A stretch of 64,000 nt of DNA from an uncultured Planctomycetota bacterium (GTDB lineage: Bacteria > Planctomycetota > Planctomycetia > Gemmatales > Gemmataceae). Under the pieces are notes generated by a model. It ran no database searches. It saw only the letters and a list, made by a program, of their open reading frames with translations, and had not been told where the DNA came from. How positions within the stretch are numbered: position 1 is the first letter of the stretch; the number at the start of each line of letters is the position of its first letter. The stretch is taken from contig CAWKHF010000007.1 in assembly GCA_963849325.1 (NCBI GenBank), positions 320,001 through 384,000 of the forward strand. Reading direction: 5' to 3'. Below are positions 49,730-62,200 of this stretch, in pieces. The position numbers were made by a program, and so were the translations under genes.

Positions 49730-50422
49730 TGGCTCGGGTGGCCACGTGGGTCCACGGCCCGACGCCCCAACGATCCGAAACAATGGGCGCACCGGATCGG
49801 AACACGCGCTTCCCTGAGACCTCGGCCAAGTGGCAAGGTCGGAGGGTTGCCGCCGCGCAAAGGGAATGTCTGCAAGCCTTTGGGAGTGTGCGTTCACGGG
49901 CTGAGGGTGACGGTCGTTCAGCTGAAGTAGAGGTGCGCCAGCATCAGAGTTGATCTGGCCACCAGAGACTCAGAAGCAACCCTGAATGCTCTTCGGCGTT
50001 TCGGACCCAAGCGTGCAAAATCACTTCCAACCCAAAGTGACTGATGCAACATTTCCAGCGACAAATACCGTTTGCGGACTCCGCAAATTGATCGTAATCA
50101 AGATCTTCAAGGGGAAGGACAAGAATGACGAGGCCAATCGCATTCTCCGAGAACTGATCTGCCACCGCGTCCTGAACGCTAACGGCAGAACGGCGAACTC
50201 GACAATCGCATTTTTCTTCAGTCCACCTTTCTTTGCAGCCGATCTCTTAACAGAGCATGTCGCCTCCTGGAGAGGGAGGCGCGCCCCTGTTGGTTGCAAC
50301 CTCTAGTAAGCCATTGGATTACGGTTGCGGTTCAAAGAGGGCCGCCCAGCCGGTCGTGATCTCACCGGCCACGCGGGAGCAGAGGGAACCAGTCCCGAGG
50401 TTGCCCAAAGCGAGGAGCTTCC

Positions 50423-51819
50423 CTGTTCGAGCACAACACCCACTTTCTGCTCGCGATCCTCGCCGCCACTTTTCTTGGGGCGAACGCCTTGGCCCAGTCA
50501 CCAGACGATGAGGCAGACGATCCGCCGCCTCGGACAATAGACCCGTTGGTACAACCGGTGCCCGCTGCCGCGGCGGGAAACCAACCGCCCGCCCTGACGG
50601 AAACGCCCACCCCGAAGGAGAACCTGCTCCCGTTCGGTGGGCCATTTTTCGGGCGAAATAAGCTGACCGGCGATTGGAATGTCCGCCGGAATCTCCTGTT
50701 GGAGGGTGGCGTCACCCTCGACGTCAGCGCGACTCAGTATTTCCAAGGCGTCGCTAGCGGCGGGCTAGAACAAGCATTCCCATTCGGCGGCCGCGACGAC
50801 TATCTCCTCAGCCTGGACGGGGAGAGACTCGGTCTGTGGAAGGGTTTCTTCATCTACCTCAAAGGGGAATCCAGGTATGGCGAGTCGGCCAATTTCCTCA
50901 CCGGGGCCTTGTCGCCGGTGAACGAGCTTCTCCTGGTTCCCGCCGAAAAGGGATACGTCCCCGCGCTCACCGGAGTGAAGTTCGTCCAGTTCCTGTCCGA
51001 GAACATGGAAATCTTTGCCGGGAAGATCAACCTTCTCTTCGATGTCCGGCAACCACTTACCGGGGCCACCGTACTCGATGGGTTCCTGAACACGTCGCTT
51101 ATCTTCAACACGATCCTCGCCCGCACCCTCCCGTACTCGACGTTCGGGGCCGGGTTCGTTTATTTAAAGGACAAGAACCCCATTTTCATCCTCTCGGTGT
51201 ACGACACGAACAGCACGCCCACGACCAGCGGGTTCCAGAGTTTTTTCAACAATGGGGTCTTGATTTACCCGATACTCAACCTTCCGACGCGCTTCTTGGG
51301 ACTGCCCGGCCACCAGGGACTGCAAGGGACGTATAGCAGCGGCAAGTACACCAATCTCTCGCCGTCACCGTACCTCGACCCGCTCAATGGGCTGATCTTC
51401 GCATCCCCACCGAAGGCCGGAACGTGGGCTTTGTCGTACAACTTCGATCAGGCGTTGTACGTATCTCCCGACGACCCGAAGCGGCTGTGGGGGGTGTTCG
51501 GGAGCCTCGGAATCGCGGACGACAACCCGAACCCGATCCAATGGTACGCCAGCGCAGGGATCAGCGGGGCCAGCCCAATTCCAGTTCGCAAACGGGATAC
51601 GTTCGGGATCGGGTACTTTCATTTGGGGATCAGCGGCCCCTTGAAGCAGAGCGCCCAACCCTTCTCGCCTTTGGGGAACGAAGACGGCGTCGAGTTGTAC
51701 TACAACGCTCGAATCGCGCCGTGGTTCCAGATGACGCCGGATCTGCAAGTCATCAACCCATTCGAGCAGCAGGCCAGGACCGCGCTCGTCTTGGGGCTCG
51801 CGGAAAACTCGACTTCTGA
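50423..51819 (+). CDS. OprB-family carbohydrate-selective porin (probable CTG start, frameshift near 51798)
   Basis: Signal peptide FLLAILAATFLGANALA; LTGDW, RDTFGIGY, VELYYN, TPDLQVI; alternative frame ends RGKLDF-stop with a terminal Phe. Confidence 0.82.
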
Positions 51820-51864
51820 CCAGGAACCGCTCCAGGCACAAACGGGGATCAGGATGCTCCGGAT

Positions 51865-53682
51865 TCAGACCAGGTTCGCCTGGAGGTCGGTGGGAAGCGC
51901 CATCTCCTCTGCCGACTGCGACCAGCCCAGGCAGCCGCGGACCACGTCGTAGAAGCCGCTTCGCCGTACGTCCTGACCCTGCAGCCGACTCGCCAGTAGG
52001 TCCGCCCCCACTAGCCCCTCGCTGAGTGTGAAGATCCCATCGGTGAAGACCAGATCGTAATTCCCCCAACGGCTGCGATACAGCCCCTTGCGGTCCCAAC
52101 GCACGGCCGAGTCAAAGGCCTCCACGAACCCGAACAAGGGGAAGAGGCTCCCGTACAGCCGGGCCAGGTCGCAACAAACCGCCGCGAAGTCGGTAATTGT
52201 TGCCCCATGCCAGGCGGTTCGCAGCGGGTGCGGGATCAGACCGAAGAGGTTTGAGATGCCCAGACGGGTCGGTCCCTTGAAGCGGGCCAAGCTGATGAGT
52301 GGGATGCCGCGATGTTCCATCAGCACCGAAGGCACAAAAGACGCCAATTCCGGATTCTGGAGCACGACGTCCCCGAGGGCGACCTGGACCTCCTCGGCCG
52401 GGGCACACGCGCCGTCCCACCACGCCTCGGTGATGTTCAGGTATTGCGCCCTGTGCCGGGCCATCACCTCCGCCAGCCCCGTCCGCCGCAGGAATTCGGC
52501 ATCCTGCTGGCGGATCCAGGGGCGATGTTTTTCGGCATCGGTCTCCCAGTCGATGTCCAGTCCGCCCACGTTGCGGCTACTCGTATGTCCCTCCAGCACG
52601 ACCGCCGGTCCCGGCAGCGCACCGAGCAGGAGATCCAAGGCGGCCGATCCGGTGTACGTTCCTTGCGCGTAACCGTGCCAGGTCACTTTCACCAGATAGC
52701 GTTCGGCGCGGGGAAGTATCCGCGAGAGGAGTTGGGCCAGTGGGGGAGTTTCCCGAGCACGTCCGAGCAACGCGGCCGGCGGTGGGATGGCCGCTTCGCT
52801 CACCGGCACCCAATCCTCACCGGACCAAATCCCGGCCAGAGACGATGGAGACTGGTATTTGGCAGAGGGAATACGCACGGCCTGGCGGGCGCGCTTGTCT
52901 TGCCAAAGGCGGAGGAGACGCTGTTCGAGCCAGGCCAATAACGCGGGGTGATCCCGCGGCGGGTCGAGTTGGCACCATCCGGCCGATTCCGGATACGCCC
53001 GCTGGTGGTCGGCAAGCATCACGGCGGCATAGTCGGTCAGCTCTCCCTCCCACGGACACTGCGGTACGAGAACCCACGCACGCGGTTCGCTCAGGCACCG
53101 CTTCAAGACGGTCGGGAGAAAGGGCTGCGTGTGGCGGACGAAGCCGACCTCGGCCCAGCTTAATCCGGCCTGCTCCCAAAGCAGGCGCATCAAGCGGTAG
53201 GAGTCGGCACGGGTCGCAGGGTCGCCCCTCCCGTCGGCGACCAGAAGTAGTCCGGCCTGCTGCGGTGGGATACGCCGCTCTTCCAGCGCTTGCAGGATTT
53301 GGCCCGCGAAGCACTCGACGAGGAAAGGGTGCGTGGGATCGACGGTGTCGTGGTGAATGGAAACCGTGGCATGGCGGCGGCGCGCCGCGCTCAACTCCTC
53401 GCCGAGCAGCGTTCGCTGCCAGACATTCAAGTCGAACGCGGCGGGCAAGACGAAGAGTTCGGAGGTCTCGTCTTGGACGCTTCGATCGATCGCCCGGCCG
53501 ATGTGATACTCGCCGGGATCTTCCATCGAATGCAACGGCAAGCAGGCTAGGCCGACCTGTGCCGTCATGCCGAAGGTGCGAGCCGCGAACGCCTGAAGTC
53601 CCGCGGCCTGGGCCTCCGCACGCGCCCAGGCCGCATCTGTCGGCCGAAGGTCGGTCGCGATGATAAAGACGGCCCCCGCCAT
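51865..53682 (-). CDS. Fusion of a degenerate CbiX/SirB-like chelatase fold and a DUF362-like domain
   Basis: LLLVADGRGDP..RADSYRLMRLLWE...AEVGFV..TQP and DHPALL parallel CbiX; YLVKVTW, VVLEG, ISLARFK, ISNLFGLIP...WHG parallel DUF362. Confidence 0.65.
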   Translation of the reverse strand: MAGAVFIIATDLRPTDAAWARAEAQAAGLQAFAARTFGMTAQVGLACLPLHSMEDPGEYHIGRAIDRSVQDETSELFVLPAAFDLNVWQRTLLGEELSAARRRHATVSIHHDTVDPTHPFLVECFAGQILQALEERRIPPQQAGLLLVADGRGDPATRADSYRLMRLLWEQAGLSWAEVGFVRHTQPFLPTVLKRCLSEPRAWVLVPQCPWEGELTDYAAVMLADHQRAYPESAGWCQLDPPRDHPALLAWLEQRLLRLWQDKRARQAVRIPSAKYQSPSSLAGIWSGEDWVPVSEAAIPPPAALLGRARETPPLAQLLSRILPRAERYLVKVTWHGYAQGTYTGSAALDLLLGALPGPAVVLEGHTSSRNVGGLDIDWETDAEKHRPWIRQQDAEFLRRTGLAEVMARHRAQYLNITEAWWDGACAPAEEVQVALGDVVLQNPELASFVPSVLMEHRGIPLISLARFKGPTRLGISNLFGLIPHPLRTAWHGATITDFAAVCCDLARLYGSLFPLFGFVEAFDSAVRWDRKGLYRSRWGNYDLVFTDGIFTLSEGLVGADLLASRLQGQDVRRSGFYDVVRGCLGWSQSAEEMALPTDLQANLV

Positions 53683-53693
53683 GTCCCACCCGC

Positions 53694-54998
53694 TCAGATT
53701 TTCAGTCGGCCACCGATACGGTTGTTCTTCACCATCACGGCGAGTGTGTCCACCATCACCCGTGCTCCCAAGAGGGAAGTTATGTCCGCGCTATCGTAAG
53801 GCGGCGACACCTCGACGACCTCCATGGCGACGATCCCTTCCTTCACGACCCCCTCGACAAGCTTGAGCGCCTCGCGGGGGAGGAAGCCGCCCGGCTCGGG
53901 CCAGCCCGTCCCGGGGACGAACCCGGAATCGACCACGTCGATGTCGAACGACAGGAAGACGGCCTTGGCCCCCTTCCACGCCACCTCCAGGGCGATCTCG
54001 ACGGTCTTGTCGATCCCGATTTTCTCGATGTCGTTGACGGTCAGGATTGTCGTGCCGCGCTCTCGGCCCACTTTCACGCCGGCGCGGGGCACCTGCCAGC
54101 CGCCGATCCCCAACTGCACCAGGTTCTTCGGCGGGCAGTTCTTGATGTTCGTGGCGTGGAACCACGGGCAGGTGTGCATGATCTCGTCCATGTCCTTTTC
54201 CTGCGTGTCCACATGCCGGTCGAAGTGGATGATCCCGACGTTGCCGTCCACGCACTGGGCCACGGCGCGGGCGTTGGGATAACCGATCGAGTGGTCTCCG
54301 CCCATGATCATCGGGAGCGTGCCGTGCGAGAGGATGTGGGCGATGCCCTTGGTTATCTGGTCGTGGCCCTTGGTGATGTTCGAGGGGCAGAAGATATCGC
54401 CGACGTCGCACATGGCGAGCGACTCGCTCAGATCGACTCCGTGCTCGTAGCTGTACTTCTGGTATAGCGCCGAGATGCGCCGAATCCCCTGCGGTCCAAA
54501 CCGCGTCCCGGTGCGGAAGGTGCAGCCGATGTCGAATGGCACGCCCACAAACGCAACGTCGTACTCGCCTACCTTCCGAACGTCTTCGAGGTAGGGCGCC
54601 CTCAGGAACGTGTTGATCCCCGACCAGTGCGGCAGGCTGCCGCGCTGGAAGCAACTGAACTCGGTCTTGTCCTGGATCGAATCGACCGGGTCGAGGCCCA
54701 GTTCCTTGATCCGTTTGATCTCCTTCTTGTAGTACTCCGAAGGCAGCGCAGCCTCGGCCTTTTGATACTTCATGCCTTCGTACGCGCTCAGATCGGGGAG
54801 CGCGTGGTCGTGTTCCCGCAGCTTCGGCGCATGCCGCTTGTAGAGGTGGCTGGCGGAGCCTTTCGCGGGCGACTCCTCGGTTTTCGGCTGCTCCCCGGAA
54901 GCCCCCTGGAGTTCCAGGGCCCCCATCCCGGCCGCAGCCACGGCTGCACCAAGAAACTCGCGACGCTGCATCTCTTCCGGGTGCTTTTTGTCACTCAT
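53694..54998 (-). CDS. gdmH: Ureohydrolase of the guanidine-hydrolase (GdmH) type with an N-terminal Tat-like signal
   Basis: RGSLPHWSGINTFLRAPYLEDVRKVGEYDVA, GTRFGPQGIRRISALY, GGDHS, HFDRHVD, MHTCPWFHATN, GIGGWQVPR, FDID, GTGWPEPGG; N-terminus QRREFLG. Confidence 0.85.
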   Translation of the reverse strand: MSDKKHPEEMQRREFLGAAVAAAGMGALELQGASGEQPKTEESPAKGSASHLYKRHAPKLREHDHALPDLSAYEGMKYQKAEAALPSEYYKKEIKRIKELGLDPVDSIQDKTEFSCFQRGSLPHWSGINTFLRAPYLEDVRKVGEYDVAFVGVPFDIGCTFRTGTRFGPQGIRRISALYQKYSYEHGVDLSESLAMCDVGDIFCPSNITKGHDQITKGIAHILSHGTLPMIMGGDHSIGYPNARAVAQCVDGNVGIIHFDRHVDTQEKDMDEIMHTCPWFHATNIKNCPPKNLVQLGIGGWQVPRAGVKVGRERGTTILTVNDIEKIGIDKTVEIALEVAWKGAKAVFLSFDIDVVDSGFVPGTGWPEPGGFLPREALKLVEGVVKEGIVAMEVVEVSPPYDSADITSLLGARVMVDTLAVMVKNNRIGGRLKI

Positions 54999-55354
54999 AA
55001 CTGCCATCCTTTCGCGAAATGAGCTTCGATTGCGGAACTACGGACGCGATGAGATCTGTTATCAGGAACCGTTCATTGAGGCCGATCCAGCTTGGCCGTC
55101 AAAGACAGGGCAGTTTCCCAGGAGAGGGGGGAATGGCGGATAGACCTCTGCTGGACGAAACCGCTGTTATCTCCGAAAGAGCTTTGCTAGTGGACCTCTC
55201 GGCTCCGTCATTCTACTGCTCAGCTCCTTCACGACAACGGCCTCCTTGCCTTTTTCACACGGTCCTCACGCGGTCCTGACTATTATCCTGCCGACGCGAC
55301 GCGTAGTTTTGCTCGGTCTTCCTCCTTCGCCTCGCCAGTCGCACCCTCCCTTGC

Positions 55355-55990
55355 GTAATCGCTCACTGCCCATTTGAAGGTCAGGCGGCATGAGCGTCAC
55401 TTGGCAGGGGTAACAACGATGGCATGATGCGCCCTTCGGCGGTAGCGGCCATGCAGGTCGTCAGAAATTCCCCCACACTCCGACCCTGCTGACGGCACGT
55501 CTCCACCACCGACCAGATACATCCCAGGTATTCCGAACCCACCACACTTTTGGGACCGTGGCTCTGCTTCCGCCACAACACCCCATGACGCAAGGCACGC
55601 TCCGCCGCGTTGTTGGTCGGCTCGACACCATCGACGAACGCGAACAAAAACATCGACGCCTCCCCACGCAGCAGTTCGCGGCACGTTCCCGCCGTCTTAG
55701 CGCAGCCGCACACCGACCCCCGCTCCAAGACGGCACAGAAGCGCACACGAAACTCTCTTTGGGCGTGCAACCGGCCCGCGAAACGCACCTTCGTCAGCGT
55801 CCCGTCCCGTACACGCTTCCACCAACCCAACATCTGATCCGACATCGCCAACAGCTCCTTACCAATCGCCGATCCCGCGTTGTTCCGATCCACCATTGCC
55901 TGAAAATCTCGACGCAGGTGCGACCAACACCATTGATGTCGTTCTTCGACCAAGTGGCTGTATATGCTGTGTCGGTCGCTGGTCAGTCCG
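55355..55990 (-). mobile_element. IS66-family remnant (3' transposase fragment and one end)
   Basis: SDR.S.Y, QWCWSHLRRDF, EPTNNAAERALR..VLWRK; end-like GTAATCGCTCAC at 55355; 5' part missing. Confidence 0.82.
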
Positions 55991-56181
55991 CGGTCCTTGC
56001 CAACCTCCTCTCCGCCCAGGCAAGGTGACAGACAGATGGAGAGGGACGGACAGCAGCTACCCGAAACGATTCGCGCACCCTGGAAGCACCGTCTGGAGTA
56101 GGAGTCACTAGAATGGGTACACTGCGCGCATCGGTACCAAAGTGGACTCGTCCTCTAGCTGCTTCTTCCGGAGTGGACCCC

Positions 56182-59160
56182 ATGCCGTCCCCCTCGCCAG
56201 GCGAACGCCGCCGCCCCTTTGCCGTGTCGGTGTTGCCGCTAACGGTCGTGGCCGGATTCGTCGCCTGGCTCGCTTCAACCGCGGCGGGACCGCCCAGGCC
56301 CACGGAACCTCGCCCCGCGAAGTTGGTTCGGACGCCTTGGACTACCTCCCGAGTCGTGGGCTCTCCGGACCCGCCGCCTCCCTTTAAGGTGGTTCGGGCA
56401 TTCCCCAATCTGAAGTTCAAGCATCCCTTGCTCCTCGCTCGCTGTCCGGGAAGCGATCGGCTCTTCGTCGGCGAGCAGGCCGGCGTGCTGTATTCGTTCC
56501 CCAACAAGCCGGACGCCAGGGCCGACCTCTTTTTCGACCTGCGCAAGGAACTCAAGACGATTCACCTGCTCGCCGGGGCGAAGGAGGTCGAGGCGGTCTA
56601 CGGGCTGGCCTTCCACCCCGATTTCGAGAAGAACCGCCAGTGCTTCGTCTGTTACACCCTGCGGAGCAAGAAGCCCGGCCAGCAGAACCTGACGGATGGG
56701 ACACGGGTGTCTCGGTTCACCGTCACCCGGACGGACCCGCCGCGGATCGACCCGTCGAGCGAGGAGATCGTGCTCACCTTCCTCCAGGGCGGGCACAACG
56801 GCGGGGACATCCACTTCGGCCCCGACCGCATGCTCTACATCTCGACCGGCGACGCGGGGAACCCGAACCCGCCCGACCCGTTCAACACGGGGCAGGACAT
56901 CTCCGACCTCCTCTGCTCCATCCTGCGGATCGACGTGGACCAGAAGGACGAGGGCAAGAACTACGCCGTCCCCAAGGACAACCCGTTCGTCGGGATGAAG
57001 GGAGCGCGGCCGGAGGTCTGGGCTTACGGCTTCCGCAACCCCTGGCGGATGGGCTTCGATCGCCAGACCGGCGAGTTGTTCGTCGGCGACGTCGGCTGGG
57101 AGCTGTGGGAGTCGGTCCATCGCGTCGAGAAGGGCGGCAACTACGGTTGGTCGGCCATGGAGGGGCCGCAGCCCATCAAGCCGGAGAAGGTCGGGCCGAC
57201 GCCGATCCATCCGCCGCTGATCGAACTGCCGCACACGATCGCTTGCAGCGTCACCGGCGGCCTCGTCTACCGCGGCAAGAAGTTCCCCGAGCTGCGCGGG
57301 GCCTACATCTTCGGCGACTGGGAAACCCGCCGACTGTGGGCCGCTCGCTTCGAGGGCGACCGTACCAAGGAGATGCCGGAGATCGCGCGGCCCGTCGGTT
57401 CGCATCGTCGCCTTCGGCGAGGACAGGGAGGGCGAACTGTACTTCCTCGACTACGACGGCGGCACGCTCCACACCCTCGAGCGCAACGACGCCGCCGCCA
57501 CGAACGCCGACTTCCCGACGAAGCTGTCCGAGACCGGCTTGTTCGCTTCGGTAAAGGACCAGACGCCGGCGGCCGGAGTGGTCCCGTTCGCGGTCAACAG
57601 CCGGCAATGGCAGGACGGTGCGACGGCGGAACACTGGGTCGCCTTCCCGGGCCTGTCGTCCGCCACCCTCTACGCAACCGGCAAGCCGATCCCCGGCAAC
57701 GTGGACTGGCATAACTTCCGCATGCACTTCCCCAAGGACGCGGTGCTGGTGAAGACCATCTCCCTGGGCGGCCGGCGGCTGGAGACGCAACTGCTGCACT
57801 TCGACGGCGTGGACTGGCACGCTTACACGTTCGCCTGGCGGGACGATCAAGCGGACGCCGACCTGGTCCCCGCCGAGGGCGCCGAGAAGGAAGTGCCGGA
57901 TGGGAAACGACAGCGCGTGTGGCAGTTCCACAGCCGCAGCCAGTGCATGTCGTGCCACAGCAGTTGGTCGGAATACGCCCTGGCGTTCCAGCCCGAGCAG
58001 TTGAACCGGATGGCAGCCGACGGACGCAACCAGCTCGTCGCCTTCACGGAGGCGGGACTCATCCGCCGGGCCGGAAAGGACGGGAAGCCGCTGCCGCCGT
58101 TCGACGCCGCCTCCGTCGCACGAGAACGAAAGCTCGCCGACCCGGCCGACGCGGACCAGCCGCTGGAGGCGCGGGCGCGCGCCTATCTCCACGCCAACTG
58201 CGGCCACTGCCATTCCGATGGCGGCGGCGGCTCCGTCAACTTGCGGCTCCAGTTTCCGGTCTCGGTCGCCGAGATGAAGGCGGTCGGCGTCCGTCCCACG
58301 CGCGGCGACTTCGGCCTGCCGGATGCGTGCATCATCAAGCCGGGCGATCCGTACGCGAGCACCCTGTACTTCCGCATGGCCAAGTTCGGCCGCGATCGGA
58401 TGCCGCACATCGGCTCCGAACGGCCGGACGAAGCGGGGTTGAAGCTCATCGAGGACTGGATCGCCGGCATGAGCGGAGACGCGGCAAAGACGGGACCTTC
58501 ACGGGAAAGCGGACCGCCGGAGGAGTTGCTGGCCAACCCGAAGTCCGCGCTGGTTGTCGCCCGCCAGCTGGGGCGCGGCGAGATGAAGCCGGCCGAGCGG
58601 GACGCAGTTGCTGGCCGCGGCGGCCAAGCTCCCGGCCGGCCCGGTGCGCGATCTGTTCGAGGGCTACCTGCCCTCGGACGAGAAGGGGGGGCGGAAGCTC
58701 GGCTCCAATCCGCGGCCCCGGACCATTTTGGCCCTACAAGGGCGACGCCGGTCGAGGCGAGAAGCTGTTCTGGTCGCCGGCGCTCAACTGCGGCAGCTGC
58801 CACAAGATCGGCGACCGGGGGACAGTCGGTCGGGCCGGACCTGTCGAGCCATCGGGAAACTCCGTCCGCGTGAAGAACTGCTGGAGAGCATCCTGGAGCC
58901 GTCGCGCCGGATCGAGCCGAAGTACGCCACCTACGTCGCCCAGACGGCCGACGGCCGTTCGATTCACCGGTCTGCTGGTCAAGCGCGACGAGAAAGAGGT
59001 GGTGCTGCGCGACGGCCAGAACAAGGAGATCGTTCTCGCGGCCAAAAACGTGGAGGCGCTGCAGCCGTCGCGGACGTCGCTGATGCCCGACGGACAGCTG
59101 GCCGGCCTGACCGCCCAGGAAGCGGCCGACCTGCTCGAATACCTCGCTACCCGCAAATGA
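56182..59160 (+). CDS. PQQ-dependent sugar-dehydrogenase-like beta-propeller fused to c-type cytochrome domains, several frameshifts (near 57395 and 58600-58960)
   Basis: HNGGDIHFGPD, YGFRNPWR, GGNYGW; haem motifs CMSCH, CGHCH, CGSCH; SLMPDG. Confidence 0.85.
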
Positions 59161-59247: not shown

Positions 59248-62200
59248 GTGATTTCGCACTTTTTCATCGATCGGCCGATCTTCGCCTCCGTGCTGTCCAT
59301 CGTCATCACCCTGGCGGGAGGCGTGGCCGTGCTGGGCCTGCCGGTGGCGCAGTATCCCGAGGTGACGCCGCCGACCGTGCTGGTGACGGCCGTCTATCCG
59401 GGGGCCAACGCCCAGACCGTGCGCGACACCGTGGCCGCTCCCATCGAGGCCCAGGTCAGCGGCGTCGAGAACATGCTGTACATGTCGTCGCAATGCACCA
59501 ACGACGGCGCCTACAACCTGACGGTGACGTTCAAAATGGGCATGGACTCGGACATGGCCCAGGTGCTGGTGCAGAACCGCGTGTCGCTGGCCCTGCCAGT
59601 CATTCCGTCGCTGGTGCAGCGCGAGGGCATTAACGTCCGCAAGATGTCGCCCAACACCATGATGATCGTCAACCTGGTCTCGCCCGACGGCACCTACGGC
59701 GACGTTTTCCTCAGCAACTACGCCACCATCGAGATCAAGGACGAGCTGGGCCGGCTGCCCGGCGTGGCCGGCATCACCTATCTCGGCCAGCGCGATTACA
59801 GCATGCGCGCCTGGCTCGACCCGGAAAAAATGGCGGTCGCTCAATCTCAGCGCCATGGACGTGGTCAACGCCGTCAGCTCGCAAAACTTGCAGGTCGCCG
59901 CCGGCATGATCGGCCAGCAGCCGGTCCCCCGCGGCCAGCAGTTCCAGCTGACCATCAACACCCTCGGCCGGCTTCGAGACACCGAGCAGTTCGGCGACAT
60001 CATCCTCAAGGTCAGCCAGACCAGCACCAGTTCGGCGTCGTCCGACCAGGGCGATTCGACGGGTGGCTCGAGTGGCACGTCCTCGACGTCCGGTTCCGGT
60101 GCGTCGTCGGGCAATCCCACCTTGCAGGGCCAGGGCGGGCAGTCGGCGCCGGCACAGGCGACCAGCGTCGTCCGCCTGCGCGACGTGGCGACCGTCGAGC
60201 TGGAATCGCAGCAGTACGACCAATCGTGTACCCTCGACGGCCGGCCGTCGGTGGCCCTGTCGATCTTCCAACTGCCTGGCTCCAACGCCCTGGACACCGC
60301 GCACGGCGTGTACGCCAAGATGGAGGAGCTGAAGAAACGCTTCCCCGAGGGACTGGATTACGAGATCGTTTACGATACCACGCCCTTTATCAGCCAGTCG
60401 ATCCACGAGGTCTTCAATACGCTGCGCGACGCGGTGATCCTCGTCGCCATCGTGGTGCTGGCCTTCCTGCAAAACTGGCGAGCGGCGCTGATCCCGCTGG
60501 TGGCCGTGCCCGTCGCCATCGTCGGCACCTTCGCCGTCATGGCGGCGCTGGGCTTCTCGCTGAACAACCTGTCGCTGTTCGGCCTGGTGCTGGCCATCGG
60601 CATCGTGGTGGACGATGCCATTGTCGTCGTCGAGAACGTCGAGCGCTGGCTGGAGCACGGCTTGCAGCCCCGCGAAGCAGCGCGGCGAGCGATGGATGAG
60701 GTGACGGGGCCGGTCATCGCCGTCGCCCTGGTGCTGTGTGCCGTGTTCGTGCCGTGCGCCTTCATCGGCGGCATCACCGGCCAGTTCTTCCGCCAGTTCG
60801 CCGTCACCATCGCCGTTTCCACGGTGATCTCGGCGTTCAACTCGCTGACCTTGAGTCCGGCGCTGGCCGCTATCCTGCTCAAGCCGCGCGGGGCGGCCCG
60901 CGACGTGCTGACCATACTGCTGGACGTGGCGCTGGGCTGGTTCTTCCGTCTCTTCAACCTCACTTTCAACGCCGGCACCGCCGTTTACACGCGGATGGTC
61001 GGCGGCCTGCTGCGCATCAGCTTGATCGCCCTGCTCGTCTACGGCGGCCTGCTGGTGCTGACCTACTGGGAGTTCAACCGCGCTCCGACCGGCTTCATCC
61101 CGCAGCAGGACAAGGGTTATCTGCTTCTCAACGTGCAGCTGCCGGACTCCGCCTCGGTCGAGCGGACGCGGCGTTTGATGGCCCGCATCGAGACGCTGGC
61201 CCGCCAGACGCCGGGCGTGGCGCACACGGTCGGCATCTCCGGCCAATCGCTGATCCTCGGCGCCAATGCGCCGAACCTCGGCTCGATGTACGTCATGCTC
61301 AAGCCGTTCGAGGAGCGGCGCGGCGCCGACCAGACGCGCCGACGCCATCGCGGCCACGCTTCGCCAGCGCTGTCGCAAGGAGGTGCGCGGGGCGATGGTG
61401 ACGGCCTTCGGCGCGCCGCCGATCGAAGGTCTGGGCACGACCGGCGGCTTCAAGCTGGTCATCGAGGACCGCGGCAACCTCGGCCTGGACGAGCTGCAGC
61501 GCGTTAGCGACCGCATCGTCGGCGCGCGGCAACGCCACGCCGGGTTTGCAGGGTCTGTTCAACAGCTCGCGCTCGAACACGCCCTGGCTGTACCTCGACA
61601 TCGACCGTACCAAGTGCCTGTCCCTGGGCGTGCCGCTGGACGAGGTCTTCAATACGCTGCAAGTCAACCTCGGATCGTACTACGTCAACAACTTCAACGA
61701 GTTCGGCCGGACCTGGCAAGTCAATCTCCAGGCCGATCCGCGCTTCCGCGACAAGGTCCAGAGAATTCGCCAACTCCAGGTGCGCAACAACCAGGGGCAG
61801 ATGATCCTGCTGGGCACGATCCTGTCGGTGCGCGACACGAGCGGCCCGGTGAGCGTCATGAGCTACAACCTGTATTCCGCCGCCGCCATCACCGGCAACA
61901 CGCGGCCCGGCACCAGCTCGGGGCAGGCCGTCGCCCTGATGAGGGAGATCGCCGAGAAAGAGCTGCCGCACGCGATGGCCTACGACTGGACGGAGCTGAC
62001 CTACATGCAGCTCCAGGCCGGCAGCACGGCCATGTATGTCGTTCGCCCTGGCCGTGGTGTTCGTGTTCCTGGTTCTGGCGGCGCAGTACGAGAGCTGGAA
62101 ACTGCCGTTGGCCGTCATCCTGGTGGTGCCGATGTGTCTGCTCTGCTCCGTCGTCGGCGTGGTCGTGGCGCGGATGGACGTGACCATCTTCACGCAGATC

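Follow-up and report, generated by a model that had tools for sequence, protein, structure and literature searches.

The window analysed here is a stretch of 64,000 nucleotides (nt) of an uncultured Planctomycetota bacterium (positions 320,001 to 384,000 of contig CAWKHF010000007.1, assembly GCA_963849325.1), and coordinates are counted from its first letter. On its minus strand lies a gene for a guanidine hydrolase of the GdmH type, followed directly by a second gene, here called p605. An OprB-family porin gene and a transposase fragment flank the pair (Table 1). The hydrolase carries an added N-terminal part of ~50 residues, consisting of a ~34-residue signal and a ~16-residue linker ahead of the catalytic body, and it is probably exported by the twin-arginine translocation (Tat) system, as judged from its sequence and from the relatives that share this part. 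The kind of enzyme is known; what the comparison suggests to be new is the exported form.

Read from its first ATG, the open reading frame (ORF) spans 53694..55007 on the minus strand (437 residues) with a G+C content at third codon positions of 0.85. The second ATG (54998) was taken as the likely start, giving a 434-residue product that begins MSDKKHPEEMQRREFL..., because the sequence GAAAGG lies 9 nt before this codon but directly abuts the first ATG (55007), which would add the residues MAV. In the 434-residue form 11 residues precede the twin arginines, as in relatives such as MNGPDPSGEMKRREFL. In the numbering of the 437-residue form, in-frame ATG, GTG or TTG codons occur only at residues 1, 4, 13, 23, 28 and 79; the conserved segment 53–78 lies between the last two of these and therefore needs a start that precedes the signal or falls within it. 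An earlier interpretation made from the letters and their ORFs (the sequence-only reading) had considered a true start downstream of the twin arginines, but no later start accounts for this segment. All strings quoted in that reading (HFDRHVD, MHTCPWFHATN, GGWQVPR, GTGWPEPGG and MSDKKHPEEMQRREFLGAAVAAAGMGALELQGASG) were found in the translation. Gene decay was considered and rejected: the window copy differs at 8 near-invariant columns, all by conservative changes, and 12 relatives range from 2 to 11. In a search of sequencing runs, the best run held 0.30 of the sampled words. Contigs from three soil or rhizosphere RNA libraries (85–95% alike) spanned only ~53722–54819, which is the catalytic part, and none the signal region; such contigs cannot reveal transcript starts, and no conclusion on expression or habitat was drawn from them.

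The sole Pfam domain of the product is Arginase (PF00491, E 3.9e-75, residues 150–421). Among solved structures, the best matches were the guanidinase of Nitrospira inopinata (9FEK, E 7.7e-144) and Synechocystis GdmH (7ESR/7OI1, E 3.4e-141), far ahead of the next match, a guanidinobutyrase (E 2.3e-50), and of agmatinases (1e-34 to 1e-39), which upholds the earlier claim that the motifs match GdmH of the Sll1077 type. Five NCBIfam models matched (two for agmatinase, two for formimidoylglutamase and one for arginase), all below their curated cut-offs; for agmatinase the scores were 164.5 against 174.3 (TIGR01230) and 217.3 against 302 (NF002564). The protein thus falls with GdmH and guanidinase and not with ordinary agmatinases, although related proteins carry the label 'agmatinase' in public records. 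The motifs GGDHS, DRHVD and SFDIDxxD (at 236, 263 and 353), which we take to hold the ligands of the binuclear metal site, do not vary among the 30 aligned orthologues (A2). The product is accordingly described here as a GdmH-type, presumably nickel-dependent, guanidine hydrolase.

Palatinszky et al. 2024 (PMC11410670) single out Thr105, His222, Trp313 and Glu344 of the N. inopinata enzyme as residues of probable importance in the catalysis of guanidine. They map to T163, H278, W369 and E399 of the 437-residue form (by hand on the structure-search alignment, whose chain numbering runs 2 ahead of the native one) and are invariant in the 30 orthologues. At position 162 the window protein has Cys instead of the Thr found in both characterised enzymes (GCTF versus GTTY). 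This difference, together with the lack of a guanidine riboswitch in the window and the millimolar Michaelis constants of the published enzymes (PMC11410670), would suit an exported enzyme that acts mainly on another extracellular guanidino compound, such as methylguanidine, agmatine or a polymer-bound group. All four diagnostic residues are retained, however, genes for urease and small-solute importers accompany the orthologues, and according to PMC11410670 neither characterised relative accepts the other guanidino compounds tested; we consider such a substrate very improbable.

The core of the signal, RREFL, occupies residues 12–16 (434-residue form) and is followed by an uncharged, Ala/Gly-rich stretch of 14 residues (FLGAAVAAAGMGAL) and then by ELQG-A-S-G, in which A-S-G, at or just before the start of the linker, is a candidate signal-peptidase site. 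Among the 120 best protein clusters, RR[DE]FL is invariant in 39, while its flanks vary; their common pattern is M..(E/G)M(K/R/P/Q)-RR-[DE]-F-L-G-A-A-A-A-A-A-A-L-G-G-L-E..A-S-G-Q-E, then a variable stretch, and a conserved motif QLYKRHAP..R.H 36–44 residues past the arginines. The RR motif is absent from all of the other 81 clusters, 52 of which begin directly at M-S/A/T-F-Y/F-K-x-HAP; the remaining 29 have a slightly earlier start, a variant of the motif, a fragment or an upstream-extended gene call. The region HLYKRH..EHDH, which the sequence-only reading had placed in a His-containing linker, is therefore better described as the conserved start of the mature part, since it aligns with the N-terminus of signal-less orthologues (MSFYKRHAPNHREHNR...); H56, P58, R61 and H63 are invariant in 30 sequences. 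The pattern H-A-P-x-x-R-x-H (window 54800..54848, minus strand; residues 51–66 of the 434-residue form) is specific to the subfamily associated with p605, and this tail may be metal- or partner-binding.

Across eight genes of the Tat form, the ratio of non-synonymous to synonymous polymorphism (pN/pS) was 0.43 for the signal, 0.65 for the linker and 0.19 for the mature part, a pattern that points to coding sequence under weaker constraint, as expected for a signal peptide. An AlphaFold2 (AF2) model of full-length GdmH on the 30-row alignment had a predicted local distance difference test (pLDDT) score of 60.4, with residues 1–69 below 50, and was too poor for the N-terminus. A lipoprotein was considered and rejected because the first 60 residues contain no Cys. 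The signal might also remain uncleaved after Tat export and anchor the enzyme to the periplasmic face of the inner membrane: the cleavage motif is a predicted one, only A-S-G/A-x-A-like, and the flexible linker of ~16 residues would suit a tether. Fourteen uncharged, Ala/Gly-rich residues followed by Glu are short for a stable span, though, and the small residues at -3 and -1 are conserved in most relatives, so that we regard an anchored form as quite improbable.

The distribution of the signal was surveyed with one genome per species, which gave 80 loci encoding the subfamily. An in-frame RR[DE]FL signal was present in seven of them (L012–L017 and L028, including Singulisphaera, Paludisphaera and Isosphaeraceae metagenome-assembled genomes). 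In L019 the signal lies in another frame owing to one frameshift (L019:7800-8100), which raises the count to 8/80; this frameshift is a long-read assembly error or marks a recent pseudogene. All eight loci belong to Isosphaeraceae within Planctomycetota, and the remaining 72 genes start where the mature part begins. Homologues with the RR motif, the absence of which the sequence-only reading had named as a point that would speak against it, thus exist, and they fall into one clade. In a quick maximum-likelihood tree of the catalytic part, the eight loci and the window formed a clade of nine with a Shimodaira–Hasegawa-like approximate likelihood ratio test (SH-aLRT) value of 88, not starred, nested in a starred clade of 18 rows from Planctomycetota, Verrucomicrobiota and a few others. 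On this tree, which is unrooted, the signal needs one change. Because 72 of the 80 loci and both characterised enzymes are without the signal, its single gain is the economical reading, and the putative exported form is restricted to Isosphaeraceae in this survey.

A search of representatives at 50% identity returned mostly fragments, among which P0125, P0129 and P0182 match the query from its first 3–13 residues; P0125 and P0182 are Isosphaeraceae-like pieces of the Tat form. Twelve of the 150 matches listed by this search, which do not amount to a survey, gave no sign of a second exported lineage. Two GdmH-like representatives (P0137 and P0141) have long N-terminal extensions rich in Ser, Lys and Arg, unlike a Tat signal, and may be organelle-targeted eukaryotic forms.

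The gene neighbourhoods differ between the two forms. ATP-binding cassette (ABC) importer genes, namely a binding-protein-like protein, a BPD_transp_1 permease and an ATPase, lie upstream on the same strand in 48 of the 80 loci, all of them signal-less. In the five nearest signal-less relatives (L018 and L020–L023), a gene for a membrane protein of the CaCA family (Na_Ca_ex) lies directly upstream of gdmH (for example L020:4215-5264, L021:6079-7931 and L023:6814-7941), and two of the five (L020 and L021) additionally have HupE/UreJ. The CaCA protein is a candidate guanidinium transporter, of a family hitherto not associated with guanidine, and HupE/UreJ a candidate nickel permease; homologues of CaCA and HupE were not found anywhere in the genome of the window. 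ABC or CaCA importers flank 53/72 signal-less loci, compared with 0/8 signal-bearing ones. Urease or urease accessory genes follow downstream in 27 of the 80 loci, and, in the region examined, importer and urease genes are absent from all eight Tat loci. Upstream, seven of these eight have a divergent OprB-family porin gene; in the whole survey OprB adjoins gdmH in eight loci, these seven and the signal-less L018. This is one correlated switch from importer to porin, on the same branch as the appearance of the signal. The earlier prediction that the enzyme would not need an inner-membrane importer fits these neighbourhoods, as a single evolutionary event.

The partner gene p605 lies directly downstream of gdmH in 78 of the 80 loci, often overlapping its stop codon; only L035 and L061, a short contig, lack it. 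Its product has no Pfam or NCBIfam family and no signal peptide. In fold searches with an AF2 model (pLDDT 85.9), the N-terminal half had a class II chelatase fold (SirB/CbiX/HemH-like): it matched SirB (E 1.3e-8, template modelling score 0.80), reached VIA Z scores of 23.6 and 23.5 for the chelatase fold and, over one lobe, matched the nickel chelatase CfbA (Z 12.3); a profile of p605 matches SirB at 3.5e-4. The C-terminal half resembled LarA-type nickel-pincer enzymes over ~200 residues with a middling Z of 11.2–11.5 for the whole-protein model. An Atlas search agreed with the fold assignment. HypA and HypB were considered as maturases of GdmH and rejected, the pair lying ~5 kb from the gene for a NiFe hydrogenase large subunit on another contig (C1). 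Because HypA/HypB are placed by the hydrogenase, p605 is a candidate nickel-loading helper in their stead, as the modelled fold suggests. A complex prediction of mature GdmH (51–434) with p605 scored 0.00 and gave no answer, which is evidence for neither side.

Taken together, these results make it reasonably probable that a GdmH-type guanidinase is made here as a Tat precursor and works in the periplasm, with a porin in place of an importer. The enzyme would fold and receive its metal in the cytoplasm, where the signal-less p605 would be the candidate loader of nickel, and the Tat system would export the folded enzyme; the genome encodes two TatC and two TatA/B/E proteins. The signal would be cut near A-S-G, leaving a flexible linker on the conserved mature N-terminus. 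Guanidine would enter the periplasm via the neighbouring OprB-type porin and be split there into urea and ammonium, which would be taken up by the ordinary urea and ammonium routes. Such a layout would replace the 'importer plus cytoplasmic hydrolase' of the characterised guanidine systems and of the closest relatives of the gene itself. The family by sequence, the conservation of the signal across the clade, the neighbourhoods and the Tat genes are established here, whereas we infer that the enzyme is exported, where its signal is cut, which substrate and metal it uses and what p605 does.

For the likeness of the N-terminus to Tat signals, the genome of the window served as its own reference. 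It has 36 places above the TIGR01409 cut-off and hence uses Tat signals widely. A position matrix was built from these 36 accepted signals (leave-one-out scores 11.0–42.2); on it the GdmH signal scored 12.8 bits, a value reached by only 104 of the 216,699 RR sites of long six-frame ORFs. The Pfam TAT_signal model likewise speaks for a Tat signal in that it matches at E 0.002.

Several results weigh against a periplasmic guanidinase. The curated Tat hidden Markov models (HMMs) leave the signal sub-threshold or silent: the 18.4 bits of Pfam TAT_signal (PF10518) fall short of its cut-off, 22.7, TIGR01409 had no match on the GdmH N-terminus, and GdmH was not among the 82 TIGR01409 matches in its own genome (150 of 243 candidates scored). 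On the matrix 34 of the 36 bona fide signals outscore it. It has no Ser or Thr before the arginines (-1) and no Lys or Arg after FL (+5), and its uncharged stretch of 14 residues is short, though it satisfies the TATFIND rule of 13 or more for the hydrophobic region. Fisher's exact test for the association of importers with the signal gave p 7.7e-5, a value that ignores relatedness; since the signal arose once, the correlation with importers and porin counts as one event, and the signal-less L018 also has a porin nearby. Neither urease alpha nor allophanate hydrolase was found over the cut-off in the genome of the window (84.7% complete), so that two of the three nitrogens of guanidine might go unused here. 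No guanidine riboswitch (Rfam) was found in the window or in eight related loci.

With the low rank of the signal in mind, the enzyme could instead be a cytoplasmic guanidine hydrolase in which the first 50 residues are a lineage-specific tail, serving for example oligomer contacts or regulation, and merely resemble a Tat signal. It would fit such a tail that p605 has no signal and yet stays linked, and that a functional extension of a different sort is described at the N-terminus of the N. inopinata guanidinase (PMC11410670). It would not explain why RR-[DE]-F-L stays unchanged in 39 clusters whose flanking residues vary, and the Ala/Gly stretch, the small residues A-S-G/A and the variable linker have the architecture of a signal peptide and not of a folded tail; furthermore, importer genes are lost exactly in the signal-bearing clade. 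We consider a cytoplasmic enzyme unlikely and read the N-terminus as a real but off-consensus Tat signal of a probably exported guanidinase.

Table 1. Features at the gdmH locus, with positions in the window.
Feature	Position	Strand	Basis
gdmH-type guanidine hydrolase gene with N-terminal signal	53694..54998	-	434 aa + stop; Arginase family, PDB matches
Shine-Dalgarno-like GAAAGG	55008..55013	-	9 nt 5' of ATG at 54998; consensus resemblance only
Tat-like signal peptide, residues 1-34, MSDKKHPEEMQ-RR-EFLGAAVAAAGMGAL-ELQGAS(G)	54897..54998	-	RR[DE]FL conservation, pN/pS, TAT_signal score
Twin-arginine codons CGT CGC	54960..54965	-	read from sequence
Variable linker, residues 35-50, GEQPKTEESPAKGSAS	54849..54896	-	length and sequence vary among 8 Tat-form genes
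Mature enzyme, His-bearing N-terminus HLYKRHAPKLREHDH and arginase-fold domain	53694..54848	-	alignment with signal-less orthologues
p605, 605 aa, class II chelatase-fold and LarA-like/DUF362-like halves	51865..53682	-	12 nt downstream of gdmH; AF2 and fold searches
OprB-family porin gene, convergent with p605	50423..51952	+	Pfam OprB 2.4e-29; listed ORF from 50489
IS66-family transposase fragment upstream of gdmH	55381..55953	-	DDE_Tnp_IS66 1.6e-12, profile positions 148-280 of 284 only

The porin of the window is 39–41% identical to the porins of the relatives and sits on the other side of the operon. The place of the relatives' divergent porin gene is occupied by the IS66 fragment, which probably marks the rearrangement that shifted the porin gene. 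As listed, the porin ORF has a TTG start (50489) and no signal peptide; the in-frame sequence upstream (50360..50494, plus strand) contains a typical one (..HFLLAILAATFLGANALA/QSP). The CTG at 50423, with GAGGAG before it, is the only start-like codon upstream, and therefore either translation begins at this CTG or the start no longer exists. The 3' ends of the porin gene and p605 overlap by 88 nt. Further along the plus strand, a glucose/sorbosone dehydrogenase-like ORF (56113..57714) is followed by overlapping ORFs with cytochrome c motifs in other frames (57539..58873 and 57919..59160); the region 56113..59160 looks like one multidomain gene broken by frameshifts. An AcrB-family ORF (59855..61507, plus strand), which matches profile positions 248–635 of 1021 only, is probably a truncated or frameshifted gene of a resistance-nodulation-division (RND) pump.

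As to the use of the products, Amt genes are present in the genome of the window, and urease alpha was found in all five relatives of the Tat clade that were tested (5/5); in the genome of the window urea may be lost, or the missing genes may be unassembled.

The closest described system is that of Synechocystis sp. PCC 6803, where GdmH (Sll1077; with GhaA/GhaB and GimABC) is of the same family and shares the metal-ligand motifs and the Trp of GTGWPEPGG. There the enzyme serves nitrogen acquisition from guanidine, has no signal peptide and is accompanied by an ABC importer, HypA/HypB-like maturases and a guanidine-I riboswitch (PMC12704784). The window differs by the Tat-like signal, the porin and the chelatase/LarA-like partner, and no importer or riboswitch is adjacent; the canonical assimilation locus, with HypA/HypB-like maturases, an importer and a guanidine riboswitch beside gdmH, was not found at the gdmH of the window. 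The N. inopinata guanidinase (9FEK), the best solved match, whose residues Thr105, His222, Trp313 and Glu344 are all kept in the window protein, is treated as cytoplasmic, with effects of cytoplasmic crowding discussed (PMC11410670), and in comammox genomes the guanidinase is paired with a permease of the APC type (amino acid–polyamine–organocation; PMC12342949). Signal-less orthologues from Planctomycetaceae, Verrucomicrobiae, Bryobacterales and Myxococcota, among them L018 and L020–L023, are 74–89% identical in the catalytic part and share the HAPxxRxH motif and p605 directly downstream; they differ in starting with MSFYK.HAP and in having CaCA or ABC importers, often with urease genes, alongside. 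Periplasmic [NiFe]-hydrogenases receive their metal and fold in the cytoplasm and are exported by means of an RR signal, and a signal-less partner can ride along; the export logic would be shared with GdmH, whereas fold and chemistry are unrelated.

No description of an exported guanidinase was found in the article texts searched; this clade may already be present in the complete guanidinase tree or the supplementary material of PMC11410670. The terms 'signal peptide', 'periplasm' and 'twin-arginine' do not occur in PMC11410670 or PMC12704784, and the retrieved passages of articles that mention guanidinase together with periplasm (including PMC12623156 and PMC12342949) are unrelated to the location of the enzyme. 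A Tat substrate of the arginase family did not turn up in the same literature either, and among the matches listed none linked guanidinase to a chelatase, CbiX or DUF362. A possible precedent for an agmatinase with a Tat signal (PMC4476819) was dismissed, the agmatinase being listed as having no signal peptide in the passage retrieved.

The cultured Singulisphaera strains (L013 and L014) carry the same gene, and the export claim is therefore directly testable. For annotation, the 'agmatinase' label that these proteins carry publicly is of consequence. In its widest form, the proposal is that Isosphaeraceae have moved the guanidine step outside the cytoplasm, sending a folded (probably hexameric) nickel enzyme through Tat, with a porin replacing the guanidinium importer and p605 as a previously undescribed class of maturase in place of HypA/HypB, perhaps co-exported as a signal-less passenger; as a whole we hold this to be tentative and rather doubtful. 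If the joint reading of Tat signal, porin and p605 is true, the enzyme would be the first bacterial protein of the arginase superfamily to work outside the cytoplasm and to have a dedicated maturation route coupled to its export. Export of the guanidinase would also place a nickel enzyme of a new fold class among the Tat substrates and offer a natural test case for the coordination of nickel loading with export. Guanidine has only recently been recognised as a widespread nitrogen source, and in every route described to our knowledge it is first imported (by ABC or APC transporters) and then hydrolysed inside the cytoplasm. An exported guanidinase would amount to a second strategy, in which a toxic, chaotropic cation is degraded outside the cytoplasm and harmless ammonium and urea are imported.

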